The notes: generated from the letters alone by a model not told the origin. DNA of 20,033 nt from Escherichia coli (GCF_003334315.1 NZ_QOWR01000069.1); one strand, 5' to 3'; shown: positions 123 through 20,033, numbered from the stretch's first letter. Program-made: numbers and translations.

Positions 123-182
123 ATTGGTGCAGAAAAAAATGCCGGATGCGACGCTGGCGCGTCTTATCCAGCCTACTCTTGC

Positions 183-4946: not shown

Positions 4947-5879
4947 TTACTTATTCTGACGCTGTGATGACATGAGAGACGTCAGAAGCCGGTCTTTTTC
5001 CTGCCACAATGAGTTCAGCCATTGCTGAAAATGGCGCTTAAAGCTTTTGTCATTGATGTAGTCGCCATGTAACTCATCGGCAATAGGCTGTAAATCCACA
5101 TGTACGACAATCCGCGTCAGTTTACCGCTTAACATATCGAAGAACGGCTGACGGTTATTGTCCGGATAACACAGCGTAACATTAAGCAGTTTATCGAATT
5201 GTTTACCCAGTACATTTAGCGCCATCGCAATGCCTGCCGCCTTTGGTGGCAACAAGTTTTGAAAAGTGGAGTGGGTTTGCTGATGTTTTTCTTGCGTGAA
5301 ACGGGAGCCTTCAACGAAATTGACAATGGTGGTGGGATGCAGGCGAAACTTTTCACAAGAACGCCGAGTGGTTTCAACATCTTTACCACGTCGCTCCGGA
5401 TGACGTAATAAATAAGCGCGGGAATAACGCTTCATAAACGGCATATCCAGCGACCAGCACGCCAGGCCAAGAAATGGCACCCAGGCCAGCTGTTGCTTGA
5501 GGAAATATTTATTCATCGGAATGTGCTTACGAAACAGCACGCACAGTACGACAATATCTGCCCAACTACGGTGGTTACAAATAAGCAGATACCAGTTCTT
5601 CTTACTTAACCCTTCCAGCCCGTGAACTTCCCATTGCAGGTGTGGGTTCAGATGCAGTAATACCGCCAGACCTTCACACCAGCAATACATCATAAAATCA
5701 CAAAAACGCGAAACCTTTCGCCAAATGACTGGCACAGGTAGCAATAGTTTTACAATCCCGGCAATGATGATCGGGACGGAACAAAAAATAGTGACCAAAA
5801 TGGTCAATACGATACTCAGCAAAAGGGTTATCGCAGCGAGTATTCTCGTCATAATGAATTTATTCAAAAGGTTAGCCAT
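4947..5879 (-). CDS. yihG: PlsC-family (lysophospholipid) acyltransferase YihG
   Basis: Acyltransferase HX4D motif (CNHRSWADI) and N-terminal transmembrane segment; start chosen at the MANLLNKF... Met (310 aa) rather than the ORF-track upstream Met at 5903. Confidence 0.85.
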
Positions 5880-5969
5880 AGACAGTGCGCTAAAGAAGCG
5901 CAAGGCGCAGATTTTAGCAGAAAACGACCCAAATAACGGATGATCCTTAAGGAGAAAAATAATTCATAT

Positions 5970-5978
5970 CTATCCACA
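5970..5978. promoter_or_regulatory. DnaA-box-like 9-mer (ctatccaca, 8/9 match to TTATCCACA) in yihG-polA divergent promoter region
   Basis: Direct sequence match to the DnaA box consensus with one mismatch. Confidence 0.35.
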
Positions 5979-6110
5979 TTAGAAAAAATCCCATTATCTC
6001 AATTATTAGGGATGGATTTATTATTAACTGCATGAAAAACAAAGACAAACATCATGCTGTAAAAAGCATGATAATAAATTAAAAGCGATGTAAATAATTT
6101 ATGCACAAAG

Positions 6111-6119
6111 TTATCCACA
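6111..6119. promoter_or_regulatory. Consensus DnaA box TTATCCACA about 125 bp upstream of the polA start
   Basis: Exact 9/9 match to TTATCCACA; polA transcription is reported to be DnaA-responsive. Confidence 0.55.
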
Positions 6120-6242
6120 TGACGATTTGCGAGCGATCCAGAAGATCTACAAAAGATTTTCACGAAAAGCGGTGAAAAACTCATGTTTTCATCCTGTCTG
6201 TGGCATCCTTTACCCATAATCTGATAAACAGGCACGGACATT

Positions 6243-9029
6243 ATGGTTCAGATCCCCCAAAATCCACTTATCCTTGTAGATGGTTCATCTTATCTTTATC
6301 GCGCATATCACGCGTTTCCCCCGCTGACTAACAGCGCAGGCGAGCCGACCGGTGCGATGTATGGTGTCCTCAACATGCTGCGCAGTCTGATCATGCAATA
6401 TAAACCGACGCATGCAGCGGTGGTCTTTGACGCCAAGGGAAAAACCTTTCGTGATGAACTGTTTGAACATTACAAATCACATCGCCCGCCAATGCCGGAC
6501 GATCTGCGTGCACAAATCGAACCCTTGCACGCGATGGTTAAAGCGATGGGACTGCCGCTGCTGGCGGTTTCTGGCGTAGAAGCGGACGACGTTATCGGTA
6601 CTCTGGCGCGCGAAGCCGAAAAAGCCGGGCGTCCGGTGCTGATCAGCACTGGCGATAAAGATATGGCGCAGCTGGTGACGCCAAATATTACGCTTATCAA
6701 TACCATGACGAATACCATCCTCGGACCGGAAGAGGTGGTGAATAAGTACGGCGTGCCGCCAGAACTGATCATCGATTTCCTGGCGCTGATGGGTGACTCC
6801 TCTGATAACATTCCTGGCGTACCGGGCGTCGGTGAAAAAACCGCGCAGGCATTGCTGCAAGGTCTTGGCGGACTGGATACGCTGTATGCCGAGCCAGAAA
6901 AAATTGCTGGGTTGAGCTTCCGTGGCGCGAAAACAATGGCAGCGAAGCTCGAGCAAAACAAAGAAGTTGCTTATCTCTCATACCAGCTGGCGACGATTAA
7001 AACCGACGTTGAACTGGAGCTGACCTGTGAACAACTGGAAGTGCAGCAACCGGCAGCGGAAGAGTTGTTGGGGCTGTTCAAAAAGTATGAGTTCAAACGC
7101 TGGACTGCTGATGTCGAAGCGGGCAAATGGTTACAGGCCAAAGGGGCAAAACCAGCCGCGAAGCCACAGGAAACCAGTGTTGCAGACGAAGCACCAGAAG
7201 TGACGGCAACGGTGATTTCTTATGACAACTACGTCACCATCCTTGATGAAGAAACACTGAAAGCGTGGATTGCGAAGCTGGAAAAAGCGCCGGTATTTGC
7301 ATTTGATACCGAAACCGACAGCCTTGATAACATCTCTGCTAACCTGGTCGGGCTTTCTTTTGCTATCGAGCCAGGCGTAGCGGCATATATTCCGGTTGCT
7401 CATGATTATCTTGATGCGCCCGATCAAATCTCTCGCGAGCGTGCACTCGAGTTGCTAAAACCGCTGCTGGAAGATGAAAAGGCGCTGAAGGTCGGGCAAA
7501 ACCTGAAATACGATCGCGGTATTCTGGCGAACTACGGCATTGAACTGCGTGGGATTGCGTTTGATACCATGCTGGAGTCCTACATTCTCAATAGCGTTGC
7601 CGGGCGTCACGATATGGACAGCCTCGCGGAACGTTGGTTGAAGCACAAAACCATCACTTTTGAAGAGATTGCTGGTAAAGGCAAAAATCAACTGACCTTT
7701 AACCAGATTGCCCTCGAAGAAGCCGGACGTTACGCCGCCGAAGATGCAGATGTCACCTTGCAGTTGCATCTGAAAATGTGGCCGGATCTGCAAAAACACA
7801 AAGGGCCGTTGAACGTCTTCGAGAATATCGAAATGCCGCTGGTGCCGGTGCTTTCACGCATTGAACGTAACGGTGTGAAGATCGATCCGAAAGTGCTGCA
7901 CAATCATTCTGAAGAGCTCACCCTTCGTCTGGCTGAGCTGGAAAAGAAAGCGCATGAAATTGCAGGTGAGGAATTTAACCTTTCTTCCACCAAGCAGTTA
8001 CAAACCATTCTCTTTGAAAAACAGGGCATTAAACCGCTGAAGAAAACGCCGGGTGGCGCGCCGTCAACGTCGGAAGAGGTACTGGAAGAACTGGCGCTGG
8101 ACTATCCGTTGCCAAAAGTGATTCTGGAGTATCGTGGTCTGGCGAAGCTGAAATCGACCTACACCGACAAGCTGCCGCTGATGATCAACCCGAAAACCGG
8201 GCGTGTGCATACCTCTTATCACCAGGCAGTAACTGCAACGGGACGTTTATCGTCAACCGATCCTAACCTGCAAAACATTCCGGTGCGTAACGAAGAAGGT
8301 CGTCGTATCCGCCAGGCGTTTATTGCGCCAGAGGATTATGTGATTGTCTCAGCGGACTACTCGCAGATTGAACTGCGCATTATGGCGCATCTTTCGCGTG
8401 ACAAAGGCTTGCTGACCGCATTCGCGGAAGGAAAAGATATCCACCGGGCAACGGCGGCAGAAGTGTTTGGTTTGCCACTGGAAACCGTCACCAGCGAGCA
8501 ACGCCGTAGCGCGAAAGCGATCAACTTTGGTCTGATTTATGGCATGAGTGCTTTCGGTCTGGCGCGGCAATTGAACATTCCACGTAAAGAAGCGCAGAAG
8601 TACATGGACCTTTACTTCGAACGCTACCCTGGCGTGCTGGAGTATATGGAACGCACCCGTGCTCAGGCGAAAGAGCAGGGCTACGTTGAAACGCTGGACG
8701 GACGCCGTCTGTATCTGCCGGATATCAAATCCAGCAATGGTGCTCGTCGTGCAGCGGCTGAACGTGCAGCCATTAATGCGCCAATGCAGGGAACCGCCGC
8801 CGACATTATCAAACGGGCGATGATTGCCGTTGATGCGTGGTTACAGGCTGAGCAACCGCGTGTACGTATGATCATGCAGGTACACGATGAACTGGTATTT
8901 GAAGTTCATAAAGATGATGTTGATGCCGTCGCGAAGCAGATTCATCAACTGATGGAAAACTGTACCCGTCTGGATGTGCCGTTGCTGGTGGAAGTGGGGA
9001 GTGGCGAAAACTGGGATCAGGCGCACTAA
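6243..9029 (+). CDS. polA: DNA polymerase I
   Basis: 928 aa; N-terminal 5'-3' exonuclease region and family-A polymerase motifs DYSQIELR (motif A), [14 protein letters not shown] (motif B), QVHDEL (motif C). Confidence 0.98.
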
Positions 9030-9176
9030 GATTCGCCTGAACATGCCCTTTTTTCGTAAGTAAGCAACATAAGCTGTCACGTTTTGTGATGGCTATTAGA
9101 AATTCCTATGCAACAACTGAAAAAAAATTACAAAAAGTGCTTTCTGAACTGAACAAAAAAGAGTAAAGTTAGTCGC

Positions 9177-9285
9177 GTAGGGTACAGAGGTAAGATGTTC
9201 TATCTTTCAGACCTTTTACTTCACGTAATCGGATTTGGCTGAATATTTTAGCCGCCCCAGTCAGTAATGACTGGGGCGTTTTTTA
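9177..9285 (+). ncRNA. spf: Spot 42 small regulatory RNA
   Basis: Sequence gtagggtacagaggtaagatgttctatctttcagacc... ending in the terminator hairpin ccccagtcagtaatgactgggg plus T-run, recognised as Spot 42; -10-like taaagt at 9164-9169. Confidence 0.9.
9195..9242 (+). CDS. spfP: 15-aa small protein encoded within Spot 42 (SpfP-like), MFYLSDLLLHVIGFG
   Basis: ATG at 9195 preceded by AGAGG; 15 sense codons then TGA, translated by hand. A dual-function Spot 42 peptide has been reported. Confidence 0.5.
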   Translation: MFYLSDLLLHVIGFG

Positions 9286-9310
9286 TTGGGCGAAAGAAAA
9301 GATCCGTAAT

Positions 9311-9389
9311 GCCTGATGCGCTATGTTTATCAGGCCAACGGTAGAATTGTAATCTATTGAATTTACGGGCCGGATACGCCACATCCGGC
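9311..9389. repeat. REP-type palindromic units between spf and the 3' end of engB
   Basis: Two imperfect palindromes: gcctgatgcg...ttatcaggcc (9311-9336) and gccggatacgccacatccggc (9369-9389). Confidence 0.6.
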
Positions 9390-9410
9390 ACAAGCATTAA
9401 GGCAAGAAAA

Positions 9411-10043
9411 TTATTCGCCGTCCTGCGTTTCTTCTACAGGCTGCATCTCGCTAAACCAGGTATCCAGTTTCTGCCGCAGCTTGTCCACGCCTTGTTTCTT
9501 CAACGAAGAAAACGTTTCAACCTGCACATCACCGTTAAACGCCAGTACAGCTTCACGCACCATATTCAATTGCGCTTTACGTGCGCCGCTTGCCAGTTTG
9601 TCCGCTTTGGTCAGCAGCACCAGAACGGCGATATTGCTGTCTACCGCCCACTCAATCATCTGCTGATCCAAATCTTTCAGCGGATGGCGAATATCCATTA
9701 GCACCACCAGACCTTGCAGGCTCTGACGTTTTTCGAGGTATTCGCCGAGCGCACGCTGCCATTTGCGCTTCATCTCTTCCGGGACTTCCGCATAACCGTA
9801 CCCAGGCAAGTCAACCAGACGCTTGCCGTCAGCCACTTCAAACAGGTTGATAAGCTGGGTGCGCCCTGGGGTTTTTGAGGTACGAGCCAGGCTTTTCTGG
9901 TTAGTCAGCGTGTTCAGCGCGCTGGATTTACCTGCGTTGGAACGGCCTGCAAAAGCCACTTCAATTCCGGTATCGGAAGGTAGGTGGCGAATATCAGGCG
10001 CACTCATCACAAAATGCGTCTGTTGATAATTCAAATTAGTCAA
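9411..10043 (-). CDS. engB: Ribosome-biogenesis GTPase EngB (YihA)
   Basis: 210 aa with G1 motif GRSNAGKSS and DLPGYG G3 region. Confidence 0.95.
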
Positions 10044-10313
10044 AGCGGTCGTCTCCGTCAGTCAAAGCTTTGTGGCGATTATACCTGAACCATAATAAAA
10101 GGCGGATTTTTCGGCGTGAGCGTTGTAAGTAAAAGCCATACGCTTTGTGAGACATTGCCGATAGTCTTTATGCGAAATAGCAGAGAAAATTCTACGATGC
10201 ATGTCAAATAAGCTATATAAATCAGTGAATTGCTTTTATATAAAACTCTGAAAATGTGCAAATACTGATGGCGGTTGATTGTTTGTTTAAAGCAAAGGCG
10301 TAAAGTAGCACCC

Positions 10314-10556
10314 ATAGAGCGAGGACGCTAACAGGAACAATGACTCAGGATGAGGGTCAGGAGCGCCAGGAGGCGAAGACAGAGGATTGTCAGGAAGACA
10401 AACGTCCGGAGACGTAATTAAACGGAAATGGAATCAACACGGATTGTTCTGGCTAATGGAAAAACAGGGTGTGTTGGCGGCCTGCAAGGATTGTAAGACC
10501 CGTTAAGGGTTATGAGTCAGGAAAAAAGGCGACAGATTACTCTGTCGCCTTTTTTC
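10314..10556 (+). ncRNA. csrC: CsrC, CsrA-sequestering sRNA
   Basis: About 243 nt with 14 GGA triplets, mostly as AGGA/CAGGA, far above chance; -10-like taaagt at 10301-10306; ends in terminator aaaaaaggcgacag...ctgtcgcctttttt; sits between engB and yihI. 5' end approximate. Confidence 0.85.
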
Positions 10557-10624
10557 TTTGCTTGCTTTCTGTTAGATTCCGCCGCAAATCTATACTGAAT
10601 AAAACGGCTAAAAGACGAACCATT

Positions 10625-11131
10625 ATGAAACCATCTTCACCATCACGCAGCAAAGGTCATGCAAAAGCGCGTCGCAAAACGCGCGAAGAGCTGAATCAGG
10701 AAGCTCGTGACCGCAAGCGTCAGAAAAAACGTCGTGGTCATGCGCCGGGCAGCCGCGCAGCGGGCGGTAACACCACGTCAGGCAGCAAAGGCCAGAACGC
10801 ACCAAAAGATCCACGTATTGGCAGTAAAACCCCTATTCCATTGGGCGTGACTGAAAAAGTCACCAAACAGCACAAACCGAAGAGTGAGAAACCTATGCTT
10901 TCACCGCAGGCGGAGTTGGAATTACTGGAAACGGATGAGCGTCTGGATGCGCTGCTGGAACGTCTGGAAGCAGGCGAAACCCTGAGTGCCGAAGAGCAAT
11001 CCTGGGTGGATGCTAAACTGGATCGTATTGATGAGTTGATGCAGAAACTCGGCCTCTCTTATGACGATGACGAAGAAGAGGAAGAAGACGAGAAGCAAGA
11101 AGACATGATGCGTCTGCTGCGGGGCAACTAA
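10625..11131 (+). CDS. yihI: Der GTPase-activating protein YihI
   Basis: Start at [18 protein letters not shown]...; highly basic N-terminus and acidic D/E-rich C-terminus. The ORF-track upstream extension from 10469 overlaps the CsrC terminator and is rejected. Confidence 0.9.
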
Positions 11132-11143
11132 CGGATTGCCGCC

Positions 11144-11317
11144 ATGGGCCTTCCCGTTCTGCTGATAACCCTTCCGGTTATATGTTATCTGGTGTGGTTA
11201 TTCGTTAAACTACAGCGGTTGTCGCGGCGACAAAAGTGGCTGCGCAACCGGCTGATGACCCGAAACGGGCATCCGCCGGTACGCCGTAGCCGCCAGAGAC
11301 GCCATCGGAAGGAGTGA
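11144..11317 (+). CDS. Candidate 57-aa small membrane protein ORF (hypothetical): MGLPVLLITLPVICYLVWLFVKLQRLSRRQKWLRNRLMTRNGHPPVRRSRQRRHRKE
   Basis: Hand translation of the yihI-hemN intergenic region. Hydrophobic N-terminal helix plus Arg/Lys-rich tail; TGA stop (11315-11317) overlaps the hemN SD. Weak SD of its own; below the ORF-track size cutoff. Confidence 0.3.
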   Translation: MGLPVLLITLPVICYLVWLFVKLQRLSRRQKWLRNRLMTRNGHPPVRRSRQRRHRKE

Positions 11318-11319
11318 GC

Positions 11320-12693
11320 ATGTCTGTACAGCAAATCGACTGGGATCTGGCCCTGATCCAGAAATATAACTATTCCGGGCCACGATACACCTCGTACCCG
11401 ACCGCGCTGGAGTTTTCAGAAGACTTCGGCGAACAGGCGTTTTTACAAGCCGTGGCGCGCTATCCTGAGCGTCCATTATCTCTCTACGTACATATCCCGT
11501 TCTGCCATAAGCTTTGTTACTTCTGCGGTTGCAATAAGATTGTTACTCGCCAGCAGCACAAGGCCGATCAGTATCTGGACGCGCTGGAGCAAGAAATCGT
11601 CCATCGTGCACCGCTGTTCGCCGGGCGTCACGTCAGCCAATTGCACTGGGGCGGCGGAACGCCGACGTATCTGAATAAAGCGCAAATCAGCCGCCTGATG
11701 AAGCTGCTGCGCGAAAACTTCCAGTTCAATGCCGATGCGGAGATTTCGATCGAAGTCGATCCGCGGGAAATCGAACTGGATGTACTCGATCATTTACGCG
11801 CCGAAGGCTTTAATCGCCTGAGCATGGGCGTGCAGGACTTCAACAAAGAAGTGCAACGTCTGGTTAACCGCGAGCAGGATGAAGAGTTCATCTTTGCACT
11901 GCTTAACCATGCGCGTGAGATTGGTTTTACCTCCACCAACATCGACCTGATTTACGGCCTGCCGAAACAGACGCCGGAGAGTTTCGCCTTTACCCTGAAA
12001 CGTGTGGCGGAGCTGAACCCCGATCGTCTGAGTGTCTTTAACTACGCGCATCTGCCGACCATTTTTGCTGCTCAGCGCAAAATCAAAGATGCTGACCTGC
12101 CGAGTCCGCAGCAAAAACTCGATATCCTGCAGGAAACCATCGCCTTCCTGACGCAATCGGGCTATCAGTTTATCGGTATGGATCACTTTGCCCGTCCGGA
12201 TGACGAGCTGGCGGTGGCCCAGCGTGAAGGCGTGCTGCATCGTAACTTCCAGGGCTACACCACTCAGGGCGATACCGATCTGCTGGGGATGGGCGTTTCC
12301 GCCATCAGCATGATTGGCGACTGCTACGCGCAGAACCAGAAAGAGTTGAAGCAGTACTATCAGCAAGTGGATGAACAAGGCAATGCGCTGTGGCGTGGTA
12401 TTGCGCTAACGCGTGATGACTGTATTCGCCGCGATGTGATTAAGTCGCTCATCTGCAACTTCCGTCTGGATTACGCCCCTATTGAGAAACAGTGGGATTT
12501 GCACTTCGCTGATTACTTTGCGGAAGATCTCAAGCTGCTCGCCCCGTTAGCAAAAGATGGGCTGGTGGATGTGGATGAGAAGGGAATACAGGTGACGGCG
12601 AAAGGTCGCTTGCTGATCCGCAACATTTGCATGTGCTTTGATACCTATCTGCGCCAGAAAGCGCGGATGCAGCAGTTCTCTCGGGTGATTTAA
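11320..12693 (+). CDS. hemN: Oxygen-independent coproporphyrinogen III oxidase HemN (radical SAM)
   Basis: Radical-SAM CxxxCxxC motif (CHKLCYFC); start taken at ATG 11320 (MSVQQIDW..., 457 aa) rather than the ORF-track GTG at 11314. Confidence 0.95.
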   Translation: MSVQQIDWDLALIQKYNYSGPRYTSYPTALEFSEDFGEQAFLQAVARYPERPLSLYVHIPFCHKLCYFCGCNKIVTRQQHKADQYLDALEQEIVHRAPLFAGRHVSQLHWGGGTPTYLNKAQISRLMKLLRENFQFNADAEISIEVDPREIELDVLDHLRAEGFNRLSMGVQDFNKEVQRLVNREQDEEFIFALLNHAREIGFTSTNIDLIYGLPKQTPESFAFTLKRVAELNPDRLSVFNYAHLPTIFAAQRKIKDADLPSPQQKLDILQETIAFLTQSGYQFIGMDHFARPDDELAVAQREGVLHRNFQGYTTQGDTDLLGMGVSAISMIGDCYAQNQKELKQYYQQVDEQGNALWRGIALTRDDCIRRDVIKSLICNFRLDYAPIEKQWDLHFADYFAEDLKLLAPLAKDGLVDVDEKGIQVTAKGRLLIRNICMCFDTYLRQKARMQQFSRVI

Positions 12694-12700
12694 ATAGTGA

Positions 12701-12739
12701 ATGGCGCTTCGTTTACAAAGTAGAAAACGAAAGCGCCAT
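12701..12739. terminator. Imperfect hairpin just after the hemN stop, putative terminator
   Basis: Inverted repeat atggcgcttcgttt / aaacgaaagcgccat flanking a 10-nt loop; no strong T-run on the + strand, so efficiency is uncertain. Confidence 0.4.
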
Positions 12740-12760
12740 CAATGTGCTGAGAACAAGATT

Positions 12761-12797
12761 GCCTGATGCGGCGCTGGTCGCGTCTTATCAGGCCTAC
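12761..12797. repeat. REP element
   Basis: gcctgatgcggcgctggtcgcgtcttatcaggcctac, a classic REP palindrome shape. Confidence 0.7.
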
Positions 12798-12830
12798 GAC
12801 TTTCTCCGCATCCGGCATAAACAACGAGCT

Positions 12831-12941
12831 TCAGCTAAACAGCCCAATCATCGCGGCACACAGCACGGCAGCAACGGCAGTTTGCGGTGTGTGGCTGTCA
12901 ACTGCGCCACTCGATACCAGATTAATTATTGATTCCAGCAT
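12831..12941 (-). CDS. yshB: 36-aa small protein (MLESIINLVSSGAVDSHTPQTAVAAVLCAAMIGLFS), YshB-like
   Basis: Hand translation of the minus strand; GGGGAGAG SD 5 nt upstream of the ATG; length and position between hemN and glnG match what I recall for yshB. Below the ORF-track cutoff. Confidence 0.6.
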   Translation of the reverse strand: MLESIINLVSSGAVDSHTPQTAVAAVLCAAMIGLFS

Positions 12942-12994
12942 AATGACTCTCCCCGTTTTCCGGGCAAGATCATACTGAACTTATCGGAACAGTA

Positions 12995-13021
12995 AAGCGC
13001 AAAATACCAGCAATTTGCGCT
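12995..13021 (-). terminator. Putative terminator downstream of glnG
   Basis: Inverted repeat aagcgcaaa / tttgcgct with about 10-nt loop, 32 bp downstream of the glnG stop; followed on the minus strand by a short T-rich stretch. Confidence 0.35.
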
Positions 13022-13052
13022 CAATAATCAATCTTTACACACAAGCCGTGAA

Positions 13053-14462
13053 TCACTCCATCCCCAGCTCTTTTAACTTACGCGTCAGAGTGTTGCGGCC
13101 CCAGCCGAGTAGCCGCGCCGCTTCCTGTTTATGCCCCTGCGTATGTCGCAACGCGGTCGTCAGTAACGTCCGCTCCAGCTCTGGCTGCGCTTCGGAAAGC
13201 AGATTTTGATGACCGGAACGTAGCGCTCTGTCTGCCCACTGCGCAAGAAGCGTCGCCCAACTGTCCGGTTGCATTTGCGAAGTACTCTCCGCAACCGTTG
13301 ATTCAAACAGTTCGCCAGGCAAATCCTGAATCAACACTTCCTGTCCGGCAGCCATTACCGTTAGCCAGCGGCAGGTGTTTTCCAGCTGGCGCACGTTGCC
13401 TGGCCACGCCAGACGCGTCAACGCGGCTTCGGTTTCCGGATGCAGCAACTTCGCTTCTACGCCCAGTTCTCGCGCGGCAACCTGTAAAAAATGGCGCGCC
13501 AGGCGGGGAATATCTTCCCGACGCTCACGCAGCGGCGGCAGATGAACGCGGATAACGTTCAGGCGGTGGAACAGATCCTCACGGAACTTACCTTCCTGCA
13601 CCCGCTGTTCGAGATTCTGGTGAGTGGCAGCGATAATCCGCACATCCACTTTCACCGGCGCATAGCCGCCAACGCGGTAAAACTGGCCGTCTGCCAGCAC
13701 GCGCAGCAAACGCGTCTGCACATCCAGCGGCATATCGCCAATTTCATCGAGAAATAATGTACCGCCATCAGCCTGTTCAAAACGCCCCTGACGAATGGTA
13801 TTCGCGCCGGTAAACGCGCCTTTCTCGTGACCAAACAGTTCTGATTCGATCAAATCCTTCGGGATAGCCGCCATATTCAGAGCGATAAATGGCGCTTTGG
13901 CTCGCGGACTGTGGCGATGCAGGGCATGAGCGACCAGTTCTTTACCGGTGCCGGATTCGCCGTTAATCAGCACGCTAATAGAAGAACGCGAAAGCCGACC
14001 GATAATACGGAACACGTCCTGCATGGCTGGCGCTTCGCCGATGATATCGGTCGTTGGGCCGTTAAGCTGAACATTACGCGGCTGCTGCTGTTCCTGGTAA
14101 TGACTGATGGCGCGCTCAACCAGCGCCACGGCTTCGTCGATATCAAACGGTTTGGGCAGATAATCAAACGCCCCTTGTTGATAGGCGCTGACGGCAGCAT
14201 CCAGATCGGAATGTGCGGTCATAATGATGACCGGAAGCATCGGATGGCGCTGTTTAATCTGCTTGAGCAGCGCCAGCCCGTCCATTCCCGGCATACGGAT
14301 ATCTGAAAGCAGCACATCCGGCGTTTTGCTCGCCAGCGCCTCCAGTACCTCCGCGCCGTTCTCAAATGTCGTACAGGTTAAACCCGCTCCAGCGAGCGCA
14401 CGTTCAAGCACCCAACGGATGGAACTATCGTCATCGACTACCCAGACTATCCCTCGTTGCAT
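13053..14462 (-). CDS. glnG: Nitrogen regulation response regulator NtrC (sigma54-dependent bacterial enhancer-binding protein)
   Basis: Start at [12 protein letters not shown] (469 aa), not the ORF-track upstream Met; receiver domain with the phospho-acceptor Asp in [15 protein letters not shown]+ Walker [15 protein letters not shown] sigma54-contact motif, C-terminal HTH. Confidence 0.97.
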
Positions 14463-14473
14463 AAACGTCACCT

Positions 14474-15523
14474 TTATTTCCTGATAGGCAGGTAAACCGA
14501 GAACTCGGTATGCCCTGGCCAACTGGTAAATTCAATTTTGCCTGAATGCTGATCAATCAAATTACGAGCGATGGATAAGCCAAGCCCGGTGCCACCTTCG
14601 CGGCCGCTGACCATCGGGTAAAACAGCGTATCCTGCAAATGAGGCGGAATGCCTGGCCCGTTATCTTCCACATCAATCCGCGCCGCCAGCCGGTAGCGTT
14701 CGCCGTGTAAGGTCAGTTGAAACGCGGTGCGGGTACGCAGAATGATTTCACCGCCTTCCGGCCCCAGCGCCTGTAGCGCATTGCGCACAATATTCAGCAA
14801 GACCTGTTCAATTTGATCCGGGTCGTGCGCCAGTTCTGGCAGGCTGGGGTCGTAATCACGAATCAACCGCACGTTGTCCGGCAGTTCCATCGACACCAGC
14901 GTTACCACGCGTTCAGCCACTTTGTGAATACTTTCGGTAACGCGCGTACCGGGCAGCTGCGGCCCCAACAGACGGTCGACCAGATTTCGCAGCCGGTCCG
15001 CCTGTTCGATAATCACTTTGGTATATTCGAGTAGTGATGGGTCAGGTAACGCTTTGCTGAGCAGCTGCGCCGCGCCACGTAAACCGCCAAGCGGATTTTT
15101 AATCTCATGTGCCAGGCCGCGCACTAAATCACGGGCAGCAACCTGCTGGGCGTGCTGTAGCTGTTCCTGACTTAAGCGGCGCTGGTTATCCATCGGAGCC
15201 ATCTCCAGCAGGATCATGCCGTCCGGCATACGCTGGGCCGTCACAGAAAGGATATGCGAGCGCCCGTCGATGACCAGCGTCACTTCGTTATCGGTAAAAC
15301 CTTGCCCCGCCTCCAGACTTTCTTGCATCAGCTCGATATTTAATGAGAAGTAGCTCAACAGTTCCGGTAACGGTGTACCAAACAATTTGCGGGAGCTTTG
15401 GGCGAGCAGTTGTTGCGCGGCGGGGTTGGCGTAATGGATCGCCAGGTTGTCATCGATTAACAAAATACTGTTAATCAGCGAGTTGAGGATCTGCCCAGCA
15501 TCGGGCTGCGTGCCTGTTGCCAT
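14474..15523 (-). CDS. glnL: Nitrogen regulation sensor histidine kinase NtrB
   Basis: 349 aa; H-box HEIKNPLGG and G-box-type ATP-binding motifs (GTGLGLS); 11-bp gap to glnG. Confidence 0.97.
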
Positions 15524-15544
15524 AAAGCAGTCTCCTGAACAGGT

Positions 15545-15561
15545 TGCACCATTTTAGTGCA
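15545..15561. promoter_or_regulatory. NtrC binding site at the glnL promoter
   Basis: Dyad tgcacc-attt-tagtgca fits the NtrC consensus TGCACC-N5-GGTGCA; located about 20 bp upstream of the glnL start. Confidence 0.6.
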
Positions 15562-15610
15562 TTATAGCTTTTTACGGATAAAAAGCGCGAAGCATCAGAG
15601 AATTGACGGA

Positions 15611-15637
15611 GAAAAAAGCCCATGCAGAGATGGGCTA
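15611..15637 (-). terminator. Rho-independent terminator of glnA
   Basis: On the minus strand: hairpin agcccatctctgcatgggct followed by a T-run (6 T; plus-strand aaaaaa at 15612-15617). Confidence 0.7.
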
Positions 15638-15680
15638 CAGATAGCTGACAAACTTCACGTTGGAGAGCGACTCACCTGCT

Positions 15681-15739
15681 CCGGCCTACCACATCATCAC
15701 CGTGTAGGCCGGATAAGACGCATTTGCGTCGCATCCGGC
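15681..15739. repeat. REP element inside the glnA 3' UTR
   Basis: ccggcctac...gtaggccggataagacgcatttgcgtcgcatccggc: paired REP-type palindromes. Confidence 0.7.
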
Positions 15740-15808
15740 GTGATGTGCTTGCCACCGATCCCAGGCCTGCCAGAGACAGGCGAAAAGTTTCCACGGCAAC
15801 TAAAACAC

Positions 15809-17218
15809 TTAGACGCTGTAGTACAGCTCAAACTCTACCGGATGCGGAGTCATACGCACGCGGTCATCTTCTTCGCGACGCAGTGCGATGTACGCATCAA
15901 TTGCTTCGTCAGTGAACACGCCACCGGCTTTCAGGAACTCGCGGTCCAGATCCAGTTCGTTCAGTGCTTCTTCCAGAGAGCCTGCAACCTGTGGGATCTC
16001 TTTCGCTTCTTCTGGCGGCAGGTCATACAGGTTTTTGTCCATGGCTTCGCCCGGATGGATCTTGTTCTTGATACCATCAAGACCGGCCATCAGCAGGGCA
16101 GCAAAGCACAGGTACGGGTTAGCTGCCGGATCCGGGAAACGTACTTCGATACGACGTGCTTTCGGAGAAGAAACCACCGGAATACGGATAGACGCAGAAC
16201 GGTTACGCGCAGAGTAAGCCAGCATTACCGGTGCTTCATAGCCCGGGACCAGACGCTTATAAGAGTTGGTGGTCGGGTTTGCCAGGGCGTTAATCGCTTT
16301 AGCGTGTTTGATTACGCCGCCAATGTAGTACAGCGCCTGCTCAGACAGACCTGCGTATTTGTCGCCTGCGAACAGGTTAACGCCGTTTTTAGACAGAGAC
16401 ATGTGGCAGTGCATACCGGAGCCGTTATCACCGAACATCGGTTTTGGCATAAAGGTCGCGGTTTTACCGAAGCGGTGCGCTACGTTGTGCACAACATATT
16501 TGTAGATCTGAATTTCGTCAGCTTTTTTGGTCATGGTATTGAAGCGGGTAGCCACTTCGTTCTGACCAGCAGTCGCTACTTCGTGGTGATGGGCTTCAAC
16601 CACCAGGCCCATCTGTTCCATCACCAGACACATTTCAGAACGAATATCCTGAGCAGAGTCTACCGGCGGAACCGGGAAGTAACCGCCTTTCACTGCCGGA
16701 CGGTGACCTTTGTTACCACCTTCATATTGGGTGGAGGAGTTCCATGCGCCTTCGATATCGTCGATAGCAACGTGAGAACCGGAGATAGATGATCCGAAAC
16801 GGATGTCATCGAACAGGAAGAATTCAGGTTCTGGCCCGAACAGTACGGTGTCGGCAATGCCAGTGGAACGCAGGTAATCTTCGGCGCGCTTCGCAATGGA
16901 GCGCGGGTCACGGTCATAGCCTTGCAGGGTGCCAGGTTCAAGGATGTCGCAACGGATAATCAGGGTGGAGTCGGCGAAGAACGGGTCAATCACTGCGGTG
17001 GATGCGTCTGGCATCAGCACCATGTCGGACTCGTTAATGCCTTTCCAGCCGCCAATCGAGGAGCCGTCAAACATTTTGCCTTCTTCGAAGAATTCAGCAT
17101 TCACCTGATGAGCAGGGATAGTGACGTGCTGTTCTTTACCTTTAGTATCGGTGAAGCGCAAATCAACAAACTTCACTTCGTGCTCGTTCAGCATCGTCAG
17201 TACGTGTTCAGCGGACAT
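15809..17218 (-). CDS. glnA: Glutamine synthetase (type I)
   Basis: 469 aa; adenylylation-site Tyr in NLYDLPPEE; characteristic GS catalytic regions. Confidence 0.98.
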
Positions 17219-17301
17219 ACTTTAACTCTCCTGGATTGGTCATGGTCGTCGTGGTAACGAAATCTGCAATTATTTTGGCCGTGTCGCCGTAAAAAAGATA
17301 A

Positions 17302-17317
17302 AGCGAAATCTGTGCCA
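17302..17317 (-). promoter_or_regulatory. Sigma54 promoter glnAp2 (-24/-12 elements)
   Basis: Minus strand reads TTGGCACagattTCGCT, matching the TGGCAC-N5-TTGCA sigma54 consensus; about 85 bp upstream of the glnA ATG. Confidence 0.75.
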
Positions 17318-17350
17318 ACTTTTAAATTGCCCCTAAAAGGCGTTATCATG

Positions 17351-17439
17351 CGCACCATCGTGCAAAAGGGCTGCACCACGATGTGAATGTTGCACCAATA
17401 TAGTGCTTCAATGGAAACATTAAGCACCATGTTGGTGCA
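17351..17439 (-). promoter_or_regulatory. Cluster of NtrC enhancer binding sites upstream of glnAp2
   Basis: Repeated TGCACC/GGTGCA half-sites: tgcaccaatatagtgct (17391-17407), agcaccatgttggtgca (17423-17439), weaker copies at 17351-17388. Confidence 0.65.
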
Positions 17440-17590
17440 ATGACCTTTGGATAACCCTTTTTATGCTCCGTGAAAGCGATCACAAAGGGACTCTGCAATA
17501 CTTGTTTGCGGAGGATGTTTGTGATCCTGTTTTGTAGTGCGATTAATCCGTGTACAATAACGCGCTATTTCTAATGCCTGAGGCAAAGTT

Positions 17591-19414
17591 GTGATCGAAA
17601 AATTGCGTAATATCGCCATCATCGCGCACGTAGACCATGGTAAAACCACCCTGGTAGACAAGCTGCTCCAACAATCCGGTACGTTCGACTCTCGTGCCGA
17701 AACCCAAGAGCGCGTGATGGACTCCAACGATTTGGAGAAAGAGCGTGGGATTACCATCCTCGCGAAAAACACCGCTATCAAATGGAATGATTACCGTATC
17801 AACATCGTTGATACCCCGGGGCACGCCGACTTCGGTGGTGAAGTTGAACGTGTAATGTCCATGGTAGACTCAGTGCTGCTGGTGGTTGACGCATTTGACG
17901 GCCCGATGCCGCAAACGCGCTTCGTAACCAAAAAAGCGTTTGCTTACGGCCTGAAGCCGATTGTTGTTATCAACAAAGTTGACCGCCCTGGCGCGCGTCC
18001 TGATTGGGTTGTGGATCAGGTATTCGATCTGTTCGTTAACCTCGACGCGACCGACGAGCAGCTGGACTTCCCGATCGTTTACGCTTCTGCGCTGAACGGT
18101 ATCGCGGGTCTGGACCACGAAGATATGGCGGAAGACATGACCCCGCTGTATCAGGCGATTGTTGATCACGTTCCTGCGCCGGACGTTGACCTTGACGGTC
18201 CGTTCCAGATGCAGATTTCTCAGCTCGATTACAACAGCTATGTTGGCGTTATCGGCATTGGCCGCATCAAGCGCGGTAAAGTGAAGCCGAACCAACAGGT
18301 CACTATCATCGATAGCGAAGGCAAAACCCGCAACGCGAAAGTCGGTAAAGTGCTGGGCCACCTCGGTCTGGAACGTATCGAAACCGATCTGGCGGAAGCT
18401 GGCGATATCGTGGCGATCACGGGCCTTGGCGAACTGAACATTTCTGACACCGTTTGCGACACGCAAAACGTTGAAGCGCTGCCGGCACTCTCCGTTGATG
18501 AGCCGACCGTTTCTATGTTCTTCTGCGTTAACACCTCGCCGTTCTGCGGTAAAGAAGGTAAGTTCGTAACGTCTCGTCAGATCCTGGATCGTCTGAACAA
18601 AGAACTGGTACACAACGTTGCGCTGCGCGTAGAAGAAACCGAAGACGCCGATGCGTTCCGCGTTTCTGGTCGTGGCGAACTGCACCTGTCTGTTCTGATC
18701 GAAAACATGCGTCGTGAAGGTTTCGAACTGGCGGTATCCCGTCCGAAAGTTATCTTCCGTGAAATCGACGGTCGTAAACAAGAGCCGTATGAAAACGTGA
18801 CGCTGGACGTTGAAGAACAGCATCAGGGTTCTGTAATGCAGGCGCTGGGCGAACGTAAAGGCGACCTGAAAAACATGAATCCAGACGGTAAAGGCCGCGT
18901 ACGTCTCGACTACGTGATCCCAAGCCGTGGTCTGATTGGCTTCCGTTCTGAGTTCATGACCATGACTTCCGGTACTGGTCTGCTGTACTCCACCTTCAGC
19001 CACTACGACGACGTACGTCCGGGTGAAGTGGGTCAGCGTCAGAACGGCGTACTGATCTCTAACGGTCAGGGTAAAGCGGTCGCGTTCGCGCTGTTCGGTC
19101 TGCAGGATCGCGGTAAGCTGTTCCTCGGTCACGGTGCAGAAGTTTACGAAGGTCAGATTATCGGTATTCATAGCCGCTCTAACGACCTGACTGTAAACTG
19201 CCTGACCGGTAAGAAACTGACCAACATGCGTGCTTCCGGTACTGACGAAGCCGTTGTTCTGGTTCCGCCTATCCGCATGACTCTGGAACAAGCTCTGGAG
19301 TTCATCGATGATGACGAACTGGTAGAAGTGACCCCGACCTCTATCCGTATTCGTAAACGTCACCTGACGGAAAACGATCGTCGTCGCGCCAACCGCGCAC
19401 CGAAAGACGATTAA
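17591..19414 (+). CDS. typA: Ribosome-associated translational GTPase BipA/TypA
   Basis: 607 aa, GTG start with GAGG SD; G-domain motifs [18 protein letters not shown]; EF-G-like domain architecture. Confidence 0.97.
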
Positions 19415-19431
19415 TTTCGTTTTTTAGTCAT

Positions 19432-19464
19432 AAAAAACCTGCCAGCGATGGCAGGTTTTTTTTT
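19432..19464 (+). terminator. Rho-independent terminator of typA
   Basis: A-run, stem cctgcca / tggcagg with 4-nt loop, then nine T. Confidence 0.85.
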
Positions 19465-19630
19465 GCCTGTCGTGAGCACTCAGCAATGCGAGTATCTCCC
19501 TTATAAGTCTGTGGTTACGTCAATAGAGAGCTTTGTCACAATTATCTGCAAAGTCATACGCCGTTAATTGCTTTCTTTTTTGGCGTAAGCGTAAGATGCC
19601 TCATCTGGTTTAAACCAAAAGGATTAAACA

Positions 19631-19652: not shown

Positions 19653-20033
19653 GGTGATGATGCCAACTTACTGATTTAGTGTATGATGGTGTTTTTGAGG
19701 TGCTCCAGTGGCTTCTGTTTCTATCAGCTGTCCCTCCTGTTCAGCTACTGACGGGGTGGTGCGTAACGGCAAAAGCACCGCCGGACATCAGCGCTATCTC
19801 TGCTCTCACTGCCGTAAAACATGGCAACTGCAGTTCACTTACACCGCTTCTCAACCCGGTACGCACCAGAAAATCATTGATATGGCCATGAATGGCGTTG
19901 GATGCCGGGCAACCGCCCGCATTATGGGCGTTGGCCTCAACACGATTTTCCGCCATTTAAAAAACTCAGGCCGCAGTCGGTAACCTCGCGCATACAGCCG
20001 GGCAGTGACGTCATCGTCTGCGCGGAAATGGAC
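19653..20033 (+). mobile_element. IS1 insertion sequence, left end and first 381 bp (truncated by window end)
   Basis: Left inverted repeat ggtgatgatgccaacttactgat; insA lies at element positions 56-331 exactly as in IS1; A6C frameshift motif ttaaaaaac at 19957-19965. Confidence 0.92.
19708..19983 (+). CDS. insA: IS1 InsA (transposition inhibitor / N-terminal part of InsAB' transposase)
   Basis: 91 aa, GTG start; zinc-finger-like CPSC...CSHC motif and HTH region ([21 protein letters not shown]...). Confidence 0.92.

Follow-up and report, generated by a model that had tools for sequence, protein, structure and literature searches.

REP Palindromes and Probable BIME Remnants at Gene Ends in the Escherichia coli mobB–bipA Region

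Introduction

Among the repeats of Escherichia coli, none are better known than REPs and BIMEs, and a further set of copies is in itself of small importance. A published count puts REPs at about 584 per genome (PMC3333891), with 60% placed between convergent genes and 40% between tandem genes. Two kinds of BIME serve as references for the elements described here. BIME-1 elements (RIP/RIB elements) are defined as a single-copy z1 unit and an inverted y unit, joined by a long conserved L linker with an IHF site (PMC3333891), whereas BIME-2 elements comprise multiple tandem z2 and y copies with a short S linker. At the RNA level, the closest described systems are REP325, an array of 12 tandem units between the co-directional genes yjdM and yjdN that acts experimentally as both attenuator and stabiliser, and the class III (K-12 type) form of the small RNA GlnZ, which carries a REP insertion (Walling et al. 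2022; Miyakoshi et al. 2022). The REP stem of GlnZ is cleaved by RNase III and is an integral part of this functional small RNA (bioRxiv 10.1101/2022.04.01.486790). Finally, the activity of RAYT (TnpA-REP) has been demonstrated in vitro, and its iREP-I cleavage site has been published as TGCC|TGAT (PMC3333891).

Here we analyze the REPs of a 20,033-nt stretch of E. coli DNA, hereafter the window, which covers the mobB–polA–spf–yihA–hemN–glnGLA–bipA region. A first-pass annotation had reported REP palindromes at three gene ends (sites 1–3). We find that the window REPs are very probably ordinary members of the family, all organized as BIMEs or as what is left of them, seeded in 3' intergenic DNA and later subject to decay or rearrangement, with a role that depends on context.

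Materials and Methods

A covariance model was trained exclusively on REPs from elsewhere (37 units, taken from 300 kb of unrelated K-12 DNA), and the 20-kb window was searched with filters off. RNA 3' ends were taken from the published K-12 Term-seq tables of Adams et al. 2021 (PMC7815308 Suppl. file 1). The presence or absence of each site was compared across 5426 genomes.

Results

The three palindromes are genuine copies of the common E. coli REP repeat known from the literature. The covariance model identified five REPs in the window (table 1), with scores of 19.4–49.7 bits, the lowest being that of the internally deleted copy at site 1; across the whole 20 kb nothing further fell below an E-value of 0.01 except opposite-strand echoes of the same palindromes. 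Furthermore, the pattern GGCCKGATAA-N6-24-CATCMGGC has three matches in the window (9311–9336 and 12761–12794 on the minus strand, 15707–15739 on the plus strand), where 100 dinucleotide-preserving shuffles give an expectation of 0.00. The covariance model and the pattern thus confirm the REP content of all three ranges, and a failure to align with REP families, which the first-pass annotation had named as its refutation, was not observed. The density of the training REPs (37 per 300 kb of K-12 DNA) agrees with the published genome count, and BLAST-short searches of 300 kb of other K-12 DNA recovered 4–10 relatives of the window units and none of the shuffled sequences. The units and linker of site 1 drew 0–1 relatives in such searches, and for this site a profile and an explicit BIME-1 alignment were therefore needed.

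All five units are intergenic, three of them in convergent pairs and one between tandem genes, in agreement with the published placement, and the annotation of flanking genes puts each of the three sites at the 3' side of a gene, as had been claimed. Like the y, z1, and z2 REPs of E. coli, the window units are imperfect palindromes of 30–38 nt with a GCC[G/T]GAT...ATC[C/A]GGC foot, and they share AA/CG stem mismatches, an extragenic 3' location, and many dispersed copies. They differ in two respects. First, the GTAG head, which is intact in the mobB, site 2, and site 3 units, is mutated at site 1 to GTTG (9336–9339, minus strand) and ACGG (9365–9368), and 9 nt are deleted from the interior of one site 1 unit. 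Second, in the mobB unit and the complete unit of site 3 the foot is y-type but the inner stem is z2-type. Rfam, which lacks a dedicated REP family, returned a single sub-threshold match, the REP325-derived naRNA4, at site 3; the RefSeq K-12 record annotates no repeat features across this stretch.

Table 1. Positions of REP units and associated features, counted from the first nucleotide of the window
Feature	Coordinates	Strand	Basis
mobB, full REP with intact GTAG head, y-type foot, and z2-type inner stem	140..176	-	Covariance model, 46.5 bits, E 3e-11
Site 1, z1-type REP, left BIME-1 arm, head GTTG for GTAG	9310..9339	-	Covariance model, 35.0 bits, E 5e-8
Site 1, L linker with IHF-type core ATTCAATAGATTA at 9350–9362, minus strand	9340..9364	.	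BIME-1 alignment
Site 1, y-type REP remnant with 9-nt internal deletion, head ACGG, and 7-bp stem	9365..9390	+	Covariance model, 19.4 bits, E 1e-3
Site 2, full z2-type REP with intact GTAG head	12760..12797	-	Covariance model, 48.9 bits; K-12 alignment
Site 2, 3' half of y REP (CCGCATCCGGCA) after 8-nt spacer	12806..12817	+	BLAST-short, 3 versus 0 for shuffles
GlnZ small RNA (glnA 3'UTR, K-12 class III type), contains site 3	15612..15805	-	Identity to K-12
Site 3, head-proximal fragment of a second, inverted REP (TCCGGCCTAC)	15680..15689	-	Read from the sequence
Site 3, full y-type REP with intact GTAG head	15704..15740	+	Covariance model, 49.7 bits, E 4e-12

Site 1 occupies the convergent spf/yihA spacer, between Spot 42 and yihA. 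Judged by its composition, it is a decayed BIME-1: the z1 and y units stand head-to-head and in single copy at the locus, and the two units and their linker align with three canonical K-12 BIME-1 elements. The z1 unit agrees with the K-12-derived z1 consensus at 23 of 25 positions, and the y remnant, which was aligned to y REPs, folds at -12.1 kcal/mol. In addition, the linker aligns with the L linkers of the three independent K-12 elements, and its IHF-type core agrees with WATCAANNNNTTR at 12 of 13 positions, a degree of match also found in each of those three. Compared with canonical BIME-1 elements, site 1 lacks ~10 nt at the end of the L linker and 9 nt within the y unit, and it retains neither GTAG head. 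At the same locus E. albertii carries an orthologous element that is less deleted and has a fuller L linker. Among the 5426 genomes the element is present in 5420 at 95% identity or more. Site 1 is very probably a fossil BIME-1 within the Rho-terminated 3' region of yihA that has kept the IHF-type core of its linker. Its role, if any, would most likely be that of a putative IHF-binding site acting at the level of DNA. Neither site 1 nor the mobB REP has an RNA 3' end called by Term-seq in K-12, and an RNA-level role at these two places is thus without support.

Site 2 lies between the convergent genes hemN and yshB, 66 nt past the hemN stop and 33 nt past the yshB stop. Next to its z2 unit is half a y REP that is the same in the K-12 and SCU-176 alleles and that, in the minimum free energy fold of the plus strand, is paired with the z2 unit's 5' arm; this half is a BIME-2-type remnant. 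The geometry of site 2 (z2 unit, short spacer, y fragment), its strain-variable copy number, and the arrangement of site 3 (REP fragment, 14-nt head-to-head linker, y unit) all resemble BIME-2 or atypical BIMEs. In contrast to those elements, neither site shows tandem amplification and each has a single complete unit, so that the unit types and the short linker of BIME-2 are present but the multiple tandem copies are not. The earlier statement that there is no BIME-scale expansion therefore holds as regards tandem arrays, but it overlooks that site 1 is a BIME-1 by composition and that sites 2 and 3 are BIME remnants.

Comparison of alleles reveals how site 2 has been rearranged. K-12 and the closest genomes have 91 extra bases, which the window has lost between two TGCCTGATGCG repeats; the junction of this deletion (12760–12770) is shared by 18 of the 5426 genomes. 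Strain 150 has a BIME-1 only, SCU-176 and K-12 have a BIME-1, the z2 unit, and the y remnant, and the window, together with those 18 genomes, has the z2 unit and y remnant only, which is the most contracted allele seen. What the window allele has lost is the adjacent BIME-1 part, presumably by excision between the two repeats. The 91-mer of K-12, which contains a y REP, is found at a median of 21 places per genome. This series of contraction and expansion and the REP-to-REP deletion within the window bear out the suggestion that REPs are recombination hotspots. The companion suggestion, that they are hotspots for IS targeting, found no such backing, as the sole IS in the window, an IS1, lies in yihL and none is located in any REP.

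The flanks of the deletion in the window differ from those of five sampled genomes that bear it, which suggests that the 91-bp deletion may recur in natural populations. The 5.9 kb around the deletion are identical in all haplotypes compared, and thus recurrence and recombination both fit in the lineage of the window. An active RAYT substrate (REPtron) is characterized by a neighboring rayT gene, a GTAG head and a stem mismatch that serve binding, and CT cleavage sites. The junction repeat contains TGCC|TGAT, and site 2 carries both this motif and GTAG, which are features of a putative RAYT substrate. One could posit that the 91-bp loss was produced in vivo by RAYT, through strand transfer from one iREP type-I site (TGCC|TGAT) to another, and not by replication slippage, but we regard this as improbable. 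The window contains no rayT gene, which in K-12 is located at 247637–248134, and we know of no in vivo demonstration of RAYT activity. If the RAYT reading were true, the hemN–yshB locus would constitute a natural assay of that activity.

The RNA 3' ends called by Term-seq flank the site 2 hairpin at 4053570/72 on the minus strand and at 4053618 (window 12802) on the plus strand, all in K-12, whose minus-strand sequence 3' of the hairpin differs from that of the window. Site 2 resembles REP325 in being a 3'UTR REP at whose base RNAs end and where termination is incomplete, but it is one unit between convergent genes. Its hairpin is very probably usable from both strands, and RNA 3' ends accumulate just past it; in the simplest case the hairpin presumably blocks 3'-5' exonucleases or else pauses or attenuates transcription. 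The proposal that the palindromes stabilize mRNA or assist termination finds direct experimental support at site 2 only, where Term-seq of K-12 puts 3' ends beyond the REP in either direction of transcription (PMC7815308), and not at site 1, which has no called 3' end, or at site 3, which is an internal module of GlnZ upstream of its terminator.

Site 3 is located downstream of glnA, inside the glnALG operon. The 285-nt glnA–glnL spacer is 100% identical to that of K-12, where glnZ (b4836) is annotated, and it displays the marks of class III GlnZ, namely a seed at the 5' end, a REP stem in the interior, and an intrinsic terminator that is conserved; no difference from the published class III form was detected in seed, REP insertion, or terminator. 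The seed lies at the 5' end of GlnZ, a terminator scan places the intrinsic terminator at 15617–15636, and the fold of the RNA has a z-score of -3.8. Transcription of GlnZ reads the complete REP of site 3 in the inverted (iREP) sense, and this REP lies 70–100 nt upstream of the hairpin-plus-U terminator. The REP hairpin (-23.3 kcal/mol, z-score -6.3) has a K-12 Term-seq 3' end within the loop (4056541, window 15725). The head-to-head linker (15690–15703) is 14 nt long, within the 14–17 nt of canonical K-12 S linkers, and the rest of the inverted arm has weak REP similarity (p about 0.036, equalled by 72 of 2000 shuffles); in the GlnZ stem, the downstream arm is possibly a decayed second REP. 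The REP and its partial inverted copy form the long double-stranded stem in the middle of GlnZ, between the seed and the terminator, and site 3 very probably acts as a structural, RNase-processing module of GlnZ, neither terminating nor stabilizing glnA. This REP-bearing allele is present in 1571 of the 5426 genomes, and the O157-type spacer is without a REP.

Discussion

Family membership, architecture, and population frequencies of the window REPs are matters of direct observation, as are, through published tables, the RNA 3' ends of K-12; exonuclease blocking at site 2, IHF binding at site 1, and the mechanism of the 91-bp deletion are inferred. The REP-related biology of this region is ordinary and previously described, the REP within GlnZ having been published already. 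The strongest competing explanation is that the REPs are selfish or neutral relics mobilized by RAYT, with no host function at the three sites, and that the nearby RNA 3' ends are incidental to any stable hairpin. Sites 2 and 3 are indeed polymorphic for presence and absence among E. coli, site 1 is without either GTAG head and has an incomplete y unit, and in other genera the spf–yihA spacer is empty or holds a classical terminator or REPs of a different kind. When the glnA 3'UTR is deleted with its terminator kept, the levels of GlnA and NtrC are unchanged (PMC9731577), a result that, together with the polymorphism of sites 2 and 3, is compatible with little or no host function. Nevertheless, we consider this explanation rather unlikely given the strong Term-seq 3' ends that coincide, on either strand, with the REP of site 2, the RNase III-cleaved REP stem that is integral to a functional small RNA, the near-universal retention of site 1, and the experimental evidence that REP325 is both an attenuator and a stabilizer.

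It is considerably less likely that the palindromes are simply the transcription terminators of yihA, hemN/yshB, and glnA. They do form stable G+C-rich hairpins directly past stop codons, the terminator scan offers yihA, hemN, and yshB no intrinsic terminator besides, and BIMEs are known from the literature to attenuate transcription in a partly Rho-dependent manner. However, no T-run follows any of the REP hairpins, and the terminator scan reports none of them, yet finds the terminators of Spot 42 and GlnZ. The glnA/GlnZ transcript ends at its separate hairpin-plus-U terminator, where the strongest K-12 Term-seq peak is found (window 15612). On the minus strand in K-12, a hairpin past the site 2 REP, at 12702–12738, collects more 3' ends (scores of 120790 and 86472) than the REP itself does (27762 and 45026). 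Furthermore, Rho termination regions in K-12 lie beyond site 1 on both strands, about 340 nt past the yihA stop and within antisense yihA. That the palindromes arose by chance or are gene-specific hairpins with no kinship to REPs, as the 0–1 BLAST-short relatives of the site 1 units might suggest, is virtually inconceivable in view of covariance E-values of 1e-3 to 4e-12, a pattern with no matches expected in shuffles, and a site 1 linker that aligns with canonical BIME-1 L linkers. Thus, we strongly favor ordinary BIMEs and BIME remnants whose role depends on context.

Seen this way, what looks like a gene-end REP can turn out to lie within a functional small RNA derived from a 3'UTR. REP clusters vary among strains, and the content of one window, which here includes a rare allele (0.3%), is therefore no safe guide to the species as a whole. 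The hemN–yshB spacer offers a clean natural BIME series for testing the effects of REPs on RNA 3' ends and the contraction of BIMEs.

The REP next to mobB was absent from the list of the first-pass annotation. Its head lies 6 nt past the mobB stop codon (183–185), its hairpin has a z-score of -3.35, and it has 10 BLAST-short matches in 300 kb of other K-12 DNA, with none for shuffles. REPs at most 15 nt from a stop codon reportedly cause ribosome stalling, a finding attributed to Liang, Rudd and Deutscher in 2015 that provides a lead for the mobB REP.

Identification of REP Elements

The window is E. coli chromosome that runs from mobB through mobA, yihD, srkA, dsbA, yihF, yihG, polA, spf, yihA, csrC, yihI, hemN, yshB, glnG, glnL, glnZ, glnA, and bipA to the start of yihL, and it aligns at 99.1-99.8% to 4.0407-4.0605 Mb of K-12 MG1655. 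All 5426 complete E. coli genomes match the 7 kb at 9000-16000, with 95-100% identity. Rfam models match Spot 42 (9167-9285), CsrC, ES222, and STnc370.

The first-pass annotation described REP units at 9311-9389, 12761-12797, and 15681-15739, which fall in the spf-yihA, hemN-yshB, and glnA-glnL spacers; the sequence at these positions bears it out, and the observation is correct and far above chance. First, a REP-like pattern (GGCCKGATAA-N6-24-CATCMGGC) has three matches in the window against 0.00 expected (100 shuffles). Second, in a window-independent test, 300 kb of unrelated K-12 DNA yielded 37 REPs of types y, z1, and z2, a density that agrees with the published count of ~584 per genome (PMC3333891). 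The covariance model made from these 37 REPs, R1 (94% of alignment cells paired, with covariation from G-C to U-A at two pairs), finds five REPs in the whole window when searched with filters off, at positions showing that the coordinates originally assigned are accurate; beyond these, the matches at E < 0.01 are only opposite-strand echoes of the same palindromes. The only REP-derived family in Rfam, naRNA4 (from REP325), reaches 30.4 and 26.6 bits on the two strands at 15707-15767, below its gathering score of 59.5.

REP elements and the GlnZ small RNA in the window
Feature	Position	Strand	Evidence
REP	140-176	-	R1, 46.5 bits
REP	9310-9339	-	R1, 35.0 bits
REP	9365-9390	+	R1, 19.4 bits
REP	12760-12797	-	R1, 48.9 bits
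REP	15704-15740	+	R1, 49.7 bits
GlnZ sRNA	15612-15805	-	Mapped from K-12 glnZ annotation

Comparison among the 5426 genomes, which had been proposed as a check, found the spf-yihA element in 5420, the window-type junction of the hemN-yshB spacer in only 18, and the REP-bearing type of glnA-glnL spacer in 1571. All elements belong to known families, most of them explicitly described already, and none is novel. Only the contracted allele between hemN and yshB, which is rare and has its junction on a cleavage motif of the REP-associated transposase, is mildly new. The general interpretation first offered follows the textbooks and is partly borne out.

A Contracted BIME Allele between hemN and yshB

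In the window this element (12760-12817) has one intact z2 REP, followed after an 8-nt spacer by the 3' half of a y REP. K-12, as well as genomes otherwise identical to the window, carries 91 extra bases directly to its left, made up of a truncated z1 unit with an L-like linker and a full y REP with a short linker, and a deletion between two TGCCTGATGCG repeats sets the two forms apart. Samples of the 5426 genomes give an allelic series: a clean BIME-1 only (e.g., strain 150), in about half of an evenly spaced sample; a BIME-1 followed by z2 and the y remnant (SCU-176 and K-12 types); and the window type. REP-mediated recombination is thus visible at this spacer, in keeping with the proposal that REPs act as recombination hotspots. 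The repeat at the junction includes TGCC|TGAT, the type-I site at which the REP-associated transposase cleaves inverted z REPs in vitro (PMC3333891). Judging from the junction, the deletion could have arisen either through this transposase acting at TGCC|TGAT or through simple replication slippage at the 11-bp direct repeat.

The five sampled carriers of the deletion (L131, L133-L136) represent one haplotype that is identical to the window across 11773-17646 and differs from it at 68-71 sites outside this interval. Within 5800-19600, 46 SNPs lie to the left, 22 to the right, and none inside, and the flanks of the window match genomes that still carry the 91 bp. The window is a mosaic relative to the deletion lineage, and its deletion may reflect either recurrence or recombination.

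It had also been suggested that the REPs stabilize mRNA or assist termination. Formation of 3' ends is documented at the hemN-yshB element only, and no REP in the window is an intrinsic terminator. In K-12, minus-strand 3' ends map to 4053570 and 4053572 (scores 27762 and 45026), 5-7 nt beyond the REP, and a plus-strand end maps to 4053618 (window 12802; score 857), 5 nt beyond CTAC. These ends agree with published work in which REP hairpins set the 3' ends of processed RNAs by acting as attenuators or partial barriers (PMC6061677; bioRxiv 10.64898/2026.03.23.713779). The strongest K-12 minus-strand 3' end of the spacer lies at window 12699, at a strong hairpin (12702-12738) that directly follows the hemN stop, has no T-run on either side, and probably ends yshB/glnLG read-through transcripts.

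A Fossil BIME-1 between spf and yihA

The element at 9310-9390 is flanked by the Spot 42 terminator (9253-9278) on one side and the yihA stop (9411) on the other, spf and yihA being convergent. Its left unit is of z1 type (23/25 consensus positions; head GTTG), and its right unit, with the head ACGG, is a y REP that has lost 9 nt internally. The L linkers of three independent canonical BIME-1 elements from K-12 align with the 25-nt spacer, which matches the IHF core WATCAANNNNTTR at 12/13 positions, just as they do. On these features the element is recognizable as one BIME-1, as defined in PMC3333891, rather than two loose REPs. E. albertii has the BIME-1 at the same locus with an L linker more complete than that of E. 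coli, indicating that the element was present before the two species diverged and is in decay; it is a fossil BIME-1.

No RNA 3' end is called at this element in K-12 Term-seq, and Rho termination regions lie past it on either strand, at 4049789 (-; window 9066) and 4050432 (+; window 9709) (PMC7815308 supplementary files 1 and 2), so that a role at the RNA level is unsupported. Our best guess, from the linker sequence, is that it may bind IHF at the DNA level. A terminator scan predicted no intrinsic terminator for yihA in E. coli.

The spf-yihA spacer varies in length between 0 and 263 nt in the 119 Enterobacterales loci compared. In Enterobacter and Pluralibacter (loci L012, L047, and L017) it is 40-56 nt where Escherichia has the BIME-1 and contains no REP, and yihA ends in a classical hairpin-plus-T terminator. 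Citrobacter has one REP there, Salmonella arizonae two in a different arrangement, and Klebsiella a REP type of its own. In Pseudescherichia vulneris (L016), only 5 nt separate the Spot 42 terminator from the yihA stop.

A REP within the GlnZ Small RNA

Over the glnA-glnL spacer the window and K-12 are 100% identical, and K-12 has glnZ (b4836) annotated there. The REP of this site (15680-15740) is part of the sRNA, lying mid-GlnZ with the 5' seed on one side and a hairpin-plus-U terminator (15617-15636) on the other. A REP internal to GlnZ, with a long double-stranded stem that RNase III cuts in vitro, has already been described and marks the class III (K-12) form (bioRxiv 10.1101/2022.04.01.486790), and three types of E. 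coli glnA 3'UTR, of 197, 85, and 230 nt, have been described (PMC9731577). The O157-type spacer is without a REP. The predicted GlnZ fold has a long stem across the REP region (z-score -3.8).

K-12 Term-seq places the dominant 3' end at window 15612, by the terminator. A reproducible minor minus-strand end in the REP loop (4056541; window 15725; score 45591) points to a glnA/GlnZ product, from processing or pausing, whose end falls inside the REP. Deletion of the glnA 3'UTR with the terminator kept left GlnA and NtrC levels unaltered (PMC9731577), which argues against stabilization of glnA mRNA by the REP. Beside the REP, across a 14-nt head-to-head linker of canonical S length, lie 10 nt from the head of a second, inverted REP; the remainder of this second arm might tentatively be read as a decayed REP.

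Other Features of the Window

The fifth REP (140-176, minus strand), absent from the first-pass annotation, is well formed and adjoins mobB, and no RNA 3' end is called there in K-12 Term-seq. Its GTAG head begins 6 nt past the mobB stop codon; REPs at most about 15 nt from a stop codon reportedly cause stalling of terminating ribosomes.

The suggestion that REPs are IS-targeting hotspots found no counterpart in the window, where the sole IS is an IS1 in yihL. Its left end (19653-20033; 98.7% identical to K-12 IS1D) lies 22 nt into yihL, the window stops inside the IS, and the yihL::IS1 junction is found in 0/5426 complete E. coli genomes.

A pseudogene annotated as a "frameshifted hypothetical protein" overlies the CsrC sRNA gene (window about 10340-10506) in L002 (1541-1707) and in the five deletion carriers L131 and L133-L136, and is probably an artefact of automatic annotation in several genomes.
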